Of a stretch of DNA of 5,878 nt, positions 2,770 through 5,878 are shown one piece after another. A program made the position numbers and the translations under genes. This DNA is from a virus. Lineage: Duplodnaviria; Heunggongvirae; Uroviricota; Caudoviricetes. The notes beneath the pieces were generated by a model. It did no database searches. It saw only the letters and a list, made by a program, of their open reading frames with translations, and was not told the DNA's origin. Position 1 is the first letter of the stretch, and the number at the start of each line of letters is the position of its first letter. The stretch lies in the IMG/VR virus record IMGVR_UViG_2681813274_000006; one strand, given 5' to 3'.

Positions 2770-3027
2770 TTTACGATTTGGGGTTGCGACTTTACCTCTA
2801 TTGATAATGCATTCCGGCAGAACGTTCAAATATGAACGTACGATATTTAACTAACCGAAAAACAAAATATAGCACAGGCGAGACATTTACCATCTAAGAA
2901 AATAGTATCGTTTTTTTACAGTTAAATCAACATCTCTTCCTTAAAATGAAAACAATAAATTTCAATCCTGAAACATTTTATTTCAGCTTATNNNNNNNNN
3001 NNACGTGCTGCGGCATAATCCCAATGA

Positions 3028-3138
3028 TTACTCCCTGACAGGGTTCGTAGGCCACTCAATATCAGGTGCAGTTGATGTATCAACACGGTTCAGCAACACC
3101 CGATACTTTTTCTAGGCTTCCACCACCAGCACGACAAG
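3028..3138 (-). pseudogene. Second copy of the lambda-type tfa 3' end (about 27-35 codons), fused to the pin remnant
   Basis: Minus-strand translation of 3111-3028 gives [27 protein letters not shown]. It is about 90% identical at nucleotide level to 1575-1685 and is preceded by an in-frame TAG (3114-3112) where the other copy has TGG (Trp). Confidence 0.7.
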
Positions 3139-3354
3139 ATGCCGCATACAGTGCCCCAGTCAGTCCAGTTTTCAGACAACCAGTGCGTCACCTTTTTGAA
3201 GGCGCTTTAAAGCACGTTTTAATCCAGGTCGGCCTGTCCTTGTTCCGCTTAATTTATCTTCAAATATTTGTTCATATCCTGCACAAACAAGAGCGTTTCG
3301 TTGCAGGTCTGTATTCTGGTCATTTGTTGATACCCTTACATAGCCAATCAGCAC
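3139..3354 (-). pseudogene. pin: Pin/Gin/Hin-family serine DNA invertase, N-terminal remnant with in-frame stop codons
   Basis: From GTG 3354: (M)LIGYVRVSTNDQNTDLQRNALVCAGYEQIFEDKLSGTRTGRPGLKRALKRLQKGDALVV, then TGA (3174-3172) where Pin proteins have Trp, then KLD, a second TGA (3162-3160), then LGHCMRH. The catalytic-serine motif YVRVSTxxQ is intact. The remnant stops after about 70 codons instead of the roughly 185-190 aa of intact family members. Confidence 0.85.
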
Positions 3355-3408
3355 GCTGAATCTCCCGTCCAAAAGCACAAATCATGCCATGCAGGCCAGA
3401 AACCGCCA

Positions 3409-3434
3409 TTATCTAAAACCTCGGTTTACGAGAA
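3409..3434. other. gix/pix-type inversion crossover site
   Basis: TTATCTAAAACCTCGGTTTACGAGAA: 26 bp made of two imperfectly inverted 12-bp half-sites around a central dinucleotide. It closely matches the Gin/Hin/Pin crossover consensus as I recall it (TTATCCAAAACCTCGGTTTACAGGAA). It lies between the invertase start and the tail-fibre variable cassette, as in Mu and e14. Confidence 0.6.
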
Positions 3435-4193
3435 CTCGGCACAAGCGGGGAGAAAATACCGTTACTCAGTACAGCGAATACCTGGACTAATCGACAAACA
3501 TTCAGCGGTGGCCTTTCTGGTGAACTATCCGGCAATGCTTCTACAGCTGCAAAATTAAAAACTGCCAGGAAAATAAGCAATGTGGCTTTTGATGGTTCCT
3601 CCGATATCACATTAAAAGCAAGTCATGTTGGTGCGTTTGCCTTAGGGAAAACAGGAAGCACCGTTGCGAATGATAAAGCAGTTGGATGGAACTGGAGTAG
3701 CGGAGCCTATAACGCAACTATTAGTGGTGCATCAACGTTAATTATTCATTTTTATATGGGAGAAGGAAGTTGTCCTGCAGCTCAGTTTCGGATTAATTAT
3801 AAAAATGGCGGTATTTTTTATCGTTCAGCCCGTGATGGTTATGGTTTTGAAGCCGACTGGTCCGAATTTTACACCACCAGAAAACCTTCAGCAGGAGATG
3901 TTGGTGCACTGCCGTTATCTGGTGGTCAACTGAATGGTGCACTGGGTATCGGAACATCCAGTGCTCTTGGCGGTAATTCGATTGTATTGGGTGATAATGA
4001 CACGGGCTTTAAACAAAAAGGCGATGGTAATCTGGATGTTTATGCTAATAACGTCCATGTTATGCGCTTTGTCTCCGGAAGCATTCAAAGTAATAAAACC
4101 ATAAATATTACGGGACGTGTTAATCCCTCGGATTACGGTAACTTTGATTCCCGCTATGTGAGAGATGTCAGACTTGGCACACGAGTTGTTTAG
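3417..4193 (+). CDS. Tail-fibre C-terminal variable-domain cassette; promoterless, with the frame opening inside the crossover site
   Basis: The frame is open from the TAA inside the crossover site (3414-3416) to TAG 4191-4193 (259 codons). The track calls only the GTG at 3582. The product (...LLSTANTWTNRQTFSGGLSGELSGNASTAAKLKTARKISNVAFDGSSDITLKAS...) is Gly/Ser/Thr/Asn-rich like phage tail-fibre distal domains. There is no ATG or ribosome-binding site at the 5' end, consistent with expression only after inversion joins it to a constant region. Confidence 0.7.
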   Translation, partial: NLGLRELGTSGEKIPLLSTANTWTNRQTFSGGLSGELSGNASTAAKLKTARKISNVAFDGSSDITLKASHVGAFALGKTGSTVANDKAVGWNWSSGAYNATISGASTLIIHFYMGEGSCPAAQFRINYKNGGIFYRSARDGYGFEADWSEFYTTRKPSAGDVGALPLSGGQLNGALGIGTSSALGGNSIVLGDNDTGFKQKGDGNLDVYANNVHVMRFVSGSIQSNKTINITGRVNPSDYGNFDSRYVRDVRLGTRVV

Positions 4194-4196
4194 ACC

Positions 4197-4343
4197 ATGA
4201 AGAAAGGCGTGATGTATGAAAAATCAGGCCATGTAATCACGGGGCTTGGTATTATCGGTGAAGTCGATGGTGATGATCCGGCAGTATTCAGACCAATACA
4301 AAAGTTAATTAACGGAACATGGTATAACGTATCGCAGGTATAA
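4197..4343 (+). pseudogene. Detached tail-fibre C-terminal tip (48 codons), separated from the cassette by an in-frame TAG
   Basis: Same frame as 3417-4193, with only TAG plus one codon between them. Its product ...[39 protein letters not shown] aligns with the contiguous C-terminus of the minus-strand fibre ([39 protein letters not shown]). Confidence 0.5.
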
Positions 4344-4345
4344 TC

Positions 4346-4999
4346 ATGCAGCATTTAAAAAACATTGTCGCAGGTAATCCAAAAACCGTTGAACAATACC
4401 AGCTAACAAAGAATTTTGATGTTATCTGGTTATGGTCCGAAGATGGAAAAAATTGGCATGAGGAATTAAAANNNNNNNNNNNNNNNNNNNNNNNNNNNNN
4501 NNNNNNNNNNNNNNNNNNNNNNNNNNNNNNNNNNNNNNNNNNNNNNNNNNNNNNNNNNNNNNNNNNNNNNNNNNNNNNNNNNNNNNNNNNNNNNNNNNNN
4601 NNNNNNNNNNNNNNNNNNNNNNNNNNNNNNNNNNNNNNNNNNNNNNNNNNNNNNNNNNNNNNNNNNNNNNNNNNNNNNNNNNNNNNNNNNNNNNNNNNNN
4701 NNNNNNNNNNNNNNNNNNNNNNNNNNNNNNNNNNNNNNNNNNNNNNNNNNNNNNNNNNNNNNNNNNNNNNNNNNNNNNNNNNNNNNNNNNNNNNNNNNNN
4801 NNNNNNNNNNNNNNNNNNNNNNNNNNNNNNNNNNNNNNNNNNNNNNNNNNNNNNNNNNNNNNNNGACTCTCAGCTACAGCTGGGCATCATTTCCGATGAG
4901 AATAAACAAAAATTAACCGAGTGGATGCTCTATGCGCAGAAGGTTGAATCCACAGACACCTCCAGCCTGCCAGTAACGTTTCCCGAACAACCAGAATGA
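4346..4999 (+). CDS. Tail fibre assembly protein (Tfa); interior masked
   Basis: ATG 4346 lies 2 nt after the preceding stop. The N-terminus [23 protein letters not shown] is paralogous to the minus-strand tfa, and the C-terminus ...[28 protein letters not shown] is Tfa-like. 393 nt of the interior are N-masked, so length and frame continuity are assumed. Confidence 0.75.
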
Positions 5000-5001
5000 G
5001 A

Positions 5002-5032
5002 GAAGGCCCGCTATCGGGCCTTAATTTTTATT
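5002..5032. terminator. Hairpin between the convergent tfa genes; probable terminator
   Basis: GAAGGCCCG (5002-5010), loop CTAT, CGGGCCTT (5015-5022), followed by AATTTTTATT on the plus strand. The T-tract overlaps the stop of the minus-strand tfa (5028-5030). Confidence 0.5.
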
Positions 5033-5555
5033 CAGGCTTTTGTGGCCATTCAGGATTTGCCGTATCCACACGGCTGACCAGAACACTGTAGCGTTCCCAT
5101 GCTTCCAGTCGTGTGCGTTCCTCGTCTGTTGCCATATTCAGCCTGACAGCTCGTTCCAGCGGCTGGATGACTGATTCAGCTTCGGAAAGCAATGCGGCCT
5201 TTTGTGATTCGGCCTGTTGTTGCAGTTCCTGTTCTGTATATTCCCTCTTTACTACTTTACCATCCAGAAACATCCATTTTCCGTTATTGTCTGCGTGACG
5301 ATTTGCCGTAATATCAGGAACTTCAACTATGCTTAGCCCTTCAGGATTAATAGTTGAAACGTCTTTACTGACAGCAACGATGATGTTGTTCTCATCGTAA
5401 GCAATTTTTATGGTGTCTGGCTGAAAATTCTTTTGTTCCTCATACCAGTTTTTGCCATCTTCGCAAAAGAGCCATACCACGCCCGCTTTTTTAGTTAGCT
5501 GGTATTGTTCCGGTGTTTTCGGATTCCCGGCCTTAATATTTTTCAGGTGCATCAT
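5028..5555 (-). CDS. Tail fibre assembly protein (Tfa)
   Basis: ATG at 5555-5553, with GGGGAG about 9 nt upstream, starts 1 nt after the fibre stop. Product [23 protein letters not shown] ... [31 protein letters not shown] has a lambda Tfa-like C-terminal motif. The track ORF starts at an upstream TTG (5591), which I think is less likely. Confidence 0.85.
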
Positions 5556-5556
5556 C

Positions 5557-5878
5557 TTAAACACTCCCCACGTTGTACCATATTCCCCCAATCAATTTCT
5601 GAATTGGCCTTCTGGCAACAGTGTCGACAATATCATCCGCATTGCTGTTAATTGCGGCTGTTAAAACATAACCTGACGCATCGCCAAAGCCGTAGTCGCG
5701 CCATACGTTTTTATATTCAATGCTGCCAAGACGAATATCCCGAACGACATGATTATGCAGCCATGTGCTTAACCAGTTGTTTTCCCACACTGAACCATAA
5801 ATATCGCCACTAGACGCAACTTGCGCACCACTTCCCAGCGCAAATTGAGGTAGCCTGAGTTTAACGGACACTCCTTCC
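5557..5878 (-). CDS. Tail fibre protein, C-terminal part; 5' end lies beyond the window
   Basis: The frame is open to the window edge (the track M at 5871 is a GTG; codons continue upstream). The C-terminus ...[62 protein letters not shown] is homologous to the plus-strand cassette and tip, and is followed directly by tfa. Confidence 0.8.

Follow-up and report, generated by a model that had tools for sequence, protein, structure and literature searches.

A probable Din-family crossover site in a decayed invertible tail-fibre segment of a prophage remnant

The 26-mer TTATCTAAAACCTCGGTTTACGAGAA at positions 3409-3434 of the analysed DNA (the window, i.e. the whole stretch of 5,878 nt) is most probably the recombinase-proximal crossover site of a decayed Din-family invertible tail-fibre segment; judged from sequence comparisons, a probability of about 85% was assigned to this reading. 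In this particular genome the site is probably an orphan relic and the switch non-functional, because the local invertase, the silent cassette and the expressed cassette are all broken, while contig L005, which served as proxy, indicates that the genome has lost the constant fibre part and the partner site. The locus is a decayed prophage remnant at ompW. As a system it is ordinary and decayed, and its type, mechanism and trans-complementation have long been known: the Gin/Pin/Hin tail-fibre switch has been textbook knowledge since the 1980s, and cross-complementation between invertases is established. The coordinates of all features are collected in Table 1.

Table 1. Features of the window, with positions counted from its first nucleotide.
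Feature	Position	Strand	Remarks
Tail-fibre-assembly gene, C-terminus remnant	3003-3120	-	fused to the broken invertase gene
Gin/Pin-type serine invertase pseudogene	3175-3354	-	GTG start 3354-3352; 59 codons including the catalytic Ser9 region
Presumed Fis-dependent recombinational enhancer (sis)	3250-3330		putative; in what is left of the invertase gene's 5' part
Probable crossover site, Din-family gix/bix type	3409-3434		recombinase-proximal, gixR/bixR position
Silent fibre C-terminal cassette A	3417-4343	+	308 codons, no start of its own; gp37_C
Tail-fibre assembly gene of cassette A	4346-4999	+	interrupted by N run 4472-4864
Tail-fibre assembly gene of opposite cassette C	5028-5555	-	175 aa; Caudo_TAP
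Fibre cassette C, last 95 codons and stop	5557-5845	-	expressed position; IS-severed from a 918-aa gene
IS600 (IS3 family) end, first 33 nt, terminal inverted repeat	5846-5878	+	from L005 and E. coli annotation

A minimal site of 26 bp is recognised by all known Din members (PMC3241671). For site searches, a reference set of ten sites was used, consisting of nine published Din-family sites and the window site itself, and both strands were scanned with up to 6 mismatches allowed. The published sites were taken from Table 3 of PMC3241671; those of Mu and e14 were re-read in the genome records. Six loci, in which the system is single-copy and the complete segment present, served as controls (Mu, e14 and L001-L004). 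Exactly two inverted sites were found in each of these six, and exactly one site, 3409-3434, in the window. The 26-mer itself occurs once in the window when both strands are searched with ≤ 3 mismatches, and 200 dinucleotide-preserving shuffles gave an expectation of 0 matches. Its closest published counterpart is bixR of the Shigella B segment/pinB (24/26 identical), followed by gixL/gixR of Mu (23/26), hixL, cixR and bixL (22/26 each), cixL and pixL (20/26) and pixR (19/26). The sequence-only reading had recognised a Gin/Hin/Pin-type crossover site here, which is borne out by the identities to bixR and gix and by the uniqueness in the window. At 2672-2683, within the methyltransferase gene, AAACCAGGGTTC was considered as a second site and rejected, the 26-mer at this place having more than 6 mismatches to every reference site.

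The architecture expected of a Din-family site, two imperfectly symmetric half-sites of 12 bp around a 2-bp core, is present. The core dinucleotide, TC at 3421-3422 or GA on the opposite strand, is that of gix and bix, and the site reads TTCTCGTAAACC GA GGTTTTAGATAA as reverse complement. The outer half-site, TTATCTAAAACC, points towards the recombinase gene, and the inner half-site, GGTTTACGAGAA, is part of the invertible segment and codes for ..LGLRE. The site is placed 54 bp upstream of the minus-strand gin-like recombinase gene, and the arrangement of site, spacer and GTG start aligns base for base with that of Mu gixR-gin.

Inside the site, a TAA is found at 3414-3416, and the frame of cassette A is open from 3417 onwards. 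It translates as NLGLRELGTSGEKIPLLSTANTW... and contains a gp37_C domain according to Pfam. The sequence-only reading had let this frame run from the TAA to 4193 without a start codon of its own. The TAA and the opening were found as described, and the first start-type codon in frame is an internal GTG at 3582. The end at 4193, however, is not the natural one: the stop codon TAG at 4191-4193 replaces CAG of the E. coli relatives, and beyond it the frame continues to 4343, where the fibre naturally ends in those relatives. By this comparison, the TAG reads as a nonsense mutation, with 4343 as the true end of the cassette. The 48-aa 'ORF' at 4197-4343 is the severed fibre tip, since the frame beyond the TAG reaches the natural fibre end. 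Compared to the E. coli copies, cassette A also has an in-frame deletion of 3 bp. The assembly gene of cassette A encodes 177 aa in L005, and the length of 217 aa given by the window is not real. The role proposed for the plus-strand frame, a silent alternative C-terminal fibre exon, agrees with its natural fusion to the constant part in two E. coli loci (L003 and L004); there, cassette A is 98.7% identical to window positions 3403-4471 and the fused fibre reads through to ..NVSQV. Of the Din-family hallmark of alternative C-terminal fibre exons with assembly genes of their own, both cassettes and both tfa genes are found in the window; the constant fibre part is absent from it.

The recombinase gene next to the site is a remnant. 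Where Gin has Trp, the remnant has TGA (3177-3175), another stop in the same frame comes 4 codons further on, and the degenerate invertase reading breaks off at about 3121, near codon 79. Pfam recognised positions 2-69 of the 145 of the Resolvase domain only, and no HTH domain was found by Pfam in the remnant. The activity of Gin requires Ser9, the E helix (e.g. residue 114) and the DNA-binding domain (PMC3575834); the fragment therefore cannot act as an invertase. The adjacent small serine invertase typical of Din systems, composed of Resolvase domain, E helix and C-terminal HTH, is thus missing from the window. Records of complete E. coli genomes list this 59-codon pseudogene as well.

Of the invertase gene, the window still has roughly the initial 180 nt. 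For hin in its native arrangement, the distance from hixL to the proximal Fis site is ~100 bp (PMC3798978), and the stimulating site was placed inside the invertase gene by Kahmann et al. 1985, as far as this work is quoted in PMC3798978. Over alignment columns 101-200, the fragment of the window and Mu gin differ in one base. Hence, the putative enhancer may well have survived in the window.

Two copies of tfa 3' ends, ~89% identical, are located on the minus strand at 1551-1698 and from 3003 to about 3120-3125. The first lies upstream of the methyltransferase gene and the second is joined to the invertase remnant. Recombination between tfa genes seems to have led to the insertion or duplication of the methyltransferase module.

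Inversion at the site was observed in relatives. The complete genomes of E. coli 4/0 (a UTI isolate) and E. coli 4/1-1 (a faecal isolate), both from one Swedish collection, carry the identical 26-mer and share the location of the locus (trpA-ompW'). If the 3,083 bp bounded by the two cores are turned around in 4/0, the result equals 4/1-1 with 0 mismatches over 10,146 bp, whereas 2,241 mismatches are counted without inversion. Among complete E. coli genomes, the junction in the state of the window was found 377 times and the flipped junction 154 times. Exchange at the core dinucleotide, the defining reaction of the Din family, is therefore seen in relatives (4/0 vs 4/1-1) and not in the genome of the window. 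Both isolates carry the 59-codon invertase pseudogene. Since the adjacent recombinase is this pseudogene, inversion in the relatives likely depends on an invertase that another prophage supplies in trans. In 641 of 5,426 complete E. coli genomes, full-length relatives of the invertase are present; AZ148 is among the 641, with two matching places in its record. Gin, Cin, Pin, Hin and PinB reportedly act on one another's segments, a result ascribed to Tominaga et al. 1991.

These observations bear on genome annotation. Because the segment flips in E. coli lineages with a pseudogene as its neighbour, assemblies of close isolates and comparisons between them will show a 3-kb 'structural variant' which is the switch state only. 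The two orientation states yield different gene calls in otherwise identical strains; the 26-bp sites are unmarked in genome annotation, and silent cassettes are annotated as 'incomplete tail fiber protein' or 'hypothetical protein'.

An inverted partner site in the minus-strand fibre gene to the right had been predicted for the window, at a tolerance of 4-6 mismatches, and such a site exists in intact relatives. L019 is free of the IS and 99.85% identical to L005, the 100%-identical proxy of the window. Its partner, TTCCTGTAAACCGAGGTATTCGATAA, matches the published bixL at 26/26 positions and the window site at 22/26 (4 mismatches). It is inverted, lies 2,916 bp rightwards and covers codons 618-626 of an intact fibre gene of 918 aa (..AVIEYLGLQETVNKAG..). 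In the E. coli loci L001, L020 and L021, an inverted partner is located ~3.08 kb away. When the 2,918 bp between the cores of L019 were inverted in silico, the junction read ..AVIEYLGLRELGTSGEK.. in frame, and the fibre (..AVIEYLGLRELGTSGEKIPLL..) stayed in frame for 875 codons up to the TAG. The predicted continuity of the frame across the site after inversion thus holds in L019.

At the right edge of the window, IS600 interrupts the fibre gene of the minus strand between 5845 and 5846, which corresponds to about codon 823 of 918. The fibre sequence CAGCGCAAAT is followed by TGAGGTAG in the window and by CCCCCATC in L019, the IS-free relative (99.9% identical), so that TGAGG in the former stands against CCCCC in the latter. 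Three IMG/VR contigs contain the exact 63-mer of the right edge, and they are 100% identical to every unmasked block of 3003-5878. L005 is the only contig with the same IS junction that extends past it, and all readings beyond 5878 rest on L005. There, the IS is complete (1,267 bp, with orfA and orfB), and E. coli records annotate it as 'IS3-like element IS600 family'. The DNA on the far side is unrelated to fibre genes. No 3-bp target duplication flanks the IS of L005 (AAT vs GTT); the difference between the flanking triplets therefore suggests an IS-mediated rearrangement and not a simple insertion. The ten-site scan detected no second Din site in L005 within +7.3 kb and none in L007 within -11.7 kb.

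Thus, an inverted second site in cis is found in the IS-free relatives and is absent from the window, L005 and L007. The sequence-only reading had noted that the partner does not lie within 5557-5878, and none was found there or elsewhere in the window. Its expectation of a partner further to the right holds for L019 and for L001, L020 and L021; it fails for L005, where none is present within 7.3 kb. The genome of the window is presumably without a usable partner site, like L005. The probable lack of an inverted partner within a few kb points to decay of the switch and not to misidentification of the site.

In its intact design, the system would work as follows. A dimer of the serine invertase would sit on each of two inverted 26-bp sites, and an enhancer bound by Fis, situated near the start of the invertase gene, would assist; the strands would be cut at the central GA/TC and rotate. 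This would invert ~3 kb carrying two convergent cassettes of 'fibre C-terminus + assembly protein', and either cassette would thus be joined in frame to the constant N-terminus of the fibre, which lies outside the segment. In the orientation of the window, the cassette beside the site (3417-4343) is the silent one. The invertase is down to 59 codons, the silent cassette carries a nonsense codon, and the expressed cassette is severed by IS600; taking L005 as proxy, the constant part and the partner site were probably lost by the same event. The linkage of block 4865-5878 to the block of the site was adopted from the relatives. As a whole, the earlier interpretation stands in its gix/pix-type site, its silent exon and its partner in intact relatives. 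Corrections were necessary in four points, which include the adjacent recombinase, in fact a truncated pseudogene of 59 codons, and the opposite fibre gene, which is cut by IS600 inside the window. Dismantling of the switch by a nonsense mutation and IS600 fits the general IS-driven prophage decay in a Shigella-type lineage.

The switch could also be alive, if IS600 were a simple insertion or the partner were located elsewhere in cis, and if the invertase of another prophage flipped the segment as in ST131-type relatives. We consider this unlikely. Flipping despite a dead local invertase does occur in E. coli (4/0 vs 4/1-1), the site and probably the enhancer are intact, and the window shows only 33 nt of the IS; L005, however, shares the junction and continues past the IS with unrelated DNA, lacks a target duplication and contains no partner over 7.3 kb. 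Moreover, the TAG would shorten the fibre made from a flipped cassette A, and the IS has already interrupted cassette C. An orphan relic is therefore preferred for this genome. A more general suggestion is tentative and rather doubtful: sites that lack an invertase and retain an enhancer might stay active for the invertases of other prophages, cryptic fibres might keep phase-varying as in the pair 4/0 and 4/1-1, and the window site might be a latent hotspot of rearrangement. If true, sites of different prophages might recombine in genomes with more than one such segment and rearrange the chromosome, and the window site would not be inert debris.

The position of the exchange was delimited with the junctions of the relatives, in which all four types are present. 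Type 1 consists of the invertase flank, TTATCTAAAACC TC GGTTTACGAGAA and cassette A, and type 2 of the constant flank, TTATCGAATACC TC GGTTTACAGGAA and cassette C. Types 3 and 4 are the reciprocal hybrids of these two; therefore, the crossover falls within the 12 bp that surround the core. Flipping in the relatives restores bixR exactly. Beyond the 26-mers, the flanks are unrelated, which excludes ordinary homologous recombination in these cases. This leaves very little room for the view that the orientation polymorphism is due to RecA-dependent homologous recombination between inverted repeats of the cassettes, with the 26-mer being a mere conserved piece of coding sequence. The cassettes of L003 and L004 do share an inverted repeat of ~780 bp and ~98% identity, which begins at the site and could support homologous inversion there. 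In L020/L021 and in L019 vs L013, in contrast, the sequences diverge directly on both sides of the 26-mer; the two sites have only ~12 bp at and beside the core in common, and it is precisely to these that the exchange maps. In addition, half of the site lies outside the fibre coding sequence, upstream of the invertase, as in Mu. A chance resemblance to the consensus, for which nothing speaks, is hardly credible given 0 matches in 200 shuffles, 24/26 identity to a published site, the correct position beside an invertase gene and the exact inversion observed at the site.

The repeats in question cover 7407-8190 and 10396-9610 of L003, and likewise in L004. The two cassettes differ only in the last ~170 nt and in the tfa gene, and the segment is accordingly flanked by long inverted repeats besides the 26-bp sites.

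Among the known systems, the B segment with pinB of Shigella boydii and Shigella sonnei is closest. It is said to have been described by Tominaga, Ikemizu and Enomoto in 1991 (reportedly J Bacteriol 173:4079). The outer, recombinase-side half of the window site is identical to that of bixR, with 24/26 matches overall, the partner in the relatives is bixL at 26/26, and the GA core and a segment of ~3 kb are common to both. The inner half differs at 2 positions, where TTCTCG of the window (LGLRE) replaces TTCCTG of bixR (LGLQE), and the invertase of the window is a pseudogene of 59 codons. In L019 and the relatives from E. coli, a lambdoid stf-type fibre supplies the constant part.

The G segment of Mu with gin has 23/26 identical positions in the site and the same order of site, ~54-bp spacer and GTG-start invertase gene. 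The convergent layout of the cassettes (S'v-U' / U-Sv) is the same as well, and both sites are read in one phase, as LGL(Q/R)E. Mu, in contrast, has an intact Gin of 193 aa and two identical sites, whereas the invertase of the window is dead, the sites differ at 4 positions, and the segment lies in a lambdoid prophage remnant and not in Mu. The P segment of e14 (pinE) and the C segment of P1 (cin) share the site family, the logic of the cassettes and an invertase beside one site. They differ in their core, which is AA instead of GA, and in an identity to the window site of only 19-22/26; further, pinE is intact and stfE of e14 is a pseudogene. A Din-family invertase gene of Shigella flexneri, pinF, is a further comparison; it is reportedly described as defective in the 1991 paper of Tominaga.

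The left end of the window consists of an IS1 terminal repeat (1-30), followed at 31-88 by a match to the ompW pseudogene of E. coli prophage-insertion loci. With IS1 at the left end and IS600 at the right end, the prophage remnant is bounded by these two elements. A megablast search with the blocks of the window returned no single match to the whole region in complete E. coli genomes, and the best hits were mosaics. The IS1 end, the ompW fragment, the IS600 end and the stretch 2765-2991 (see below) suggest that the window derives from a Shigella or enteroinvasive E. coli genome. It was assembled as a scaffold with gaps, in which one join or more is chimeric.

N runs are located at 135-529, 1816-1888, 2992-3002 and 4472-4864, and their lengths differ from the real sequence; a run of 393 N stands where L005 has 273 bases. 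The block containing the site, 3003-4471, is free of gaps. Positions 1745-1815 are repeated at 1889-1960, on either side of an N run, which looks like an artefact of scaffolding or gap filling. Compared to L005, 2765-3002 is an insertion, and the 227 nt at 2765-2991 are absent from L005, L018 and L019. L010-L012 match these 227 nt at 99.7%; there, the stretch is situated between another copy of the methyltransferase gene and an ipaH-type effector gene (LRR_TTSS and NEL), downstream of the former and upstream of the latter. Scaffolding has probably produced a chimera of two methyltransferase modules at 2765-2991; the stretch also speaks for a Shigella/EIEC host.

Two genes survive intact in the remnant, a Rha-family regulator gene (Phage_pRha) at 632-1189 and a class I SAM-dependent methyltransferase gene at 2056-2724. 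The methyltransferase protein occurs with identical sequence on many contigs and is listed in 329 blocks of the collection.

L018 (GCA_019732345.1), a close relative, has sites at 3102-3127 and 6018-6043. It contains the left-hand module of the window with Rha, the methyltransferase, the dead invertase, the site and cassettes A and C; through a site TTATCGATAACGTCGGTTTACAGGAA, this module is joined to the constant S part and baseplate genes of a Mu-like prophage. Phage records include a 'Mu-like phage' region to which the right side of L018 is 92.8% identical, and the module of L019 is joined to a lambdoid fibre. This suggests that the invertible segments of two prophages may have recombined in L018. 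In the draft Shigella-type assemblies L014-L017 (GCA_9001603xx/9001579xx), the segment occurs twice or three times on a single contig, in both orientations, and some copies have invertase-side flanks at both ends (sites c and d of L015). This pattern could be due to mixed orientations in the culture that was sequenced, confusing the assembler, or to several real copies.
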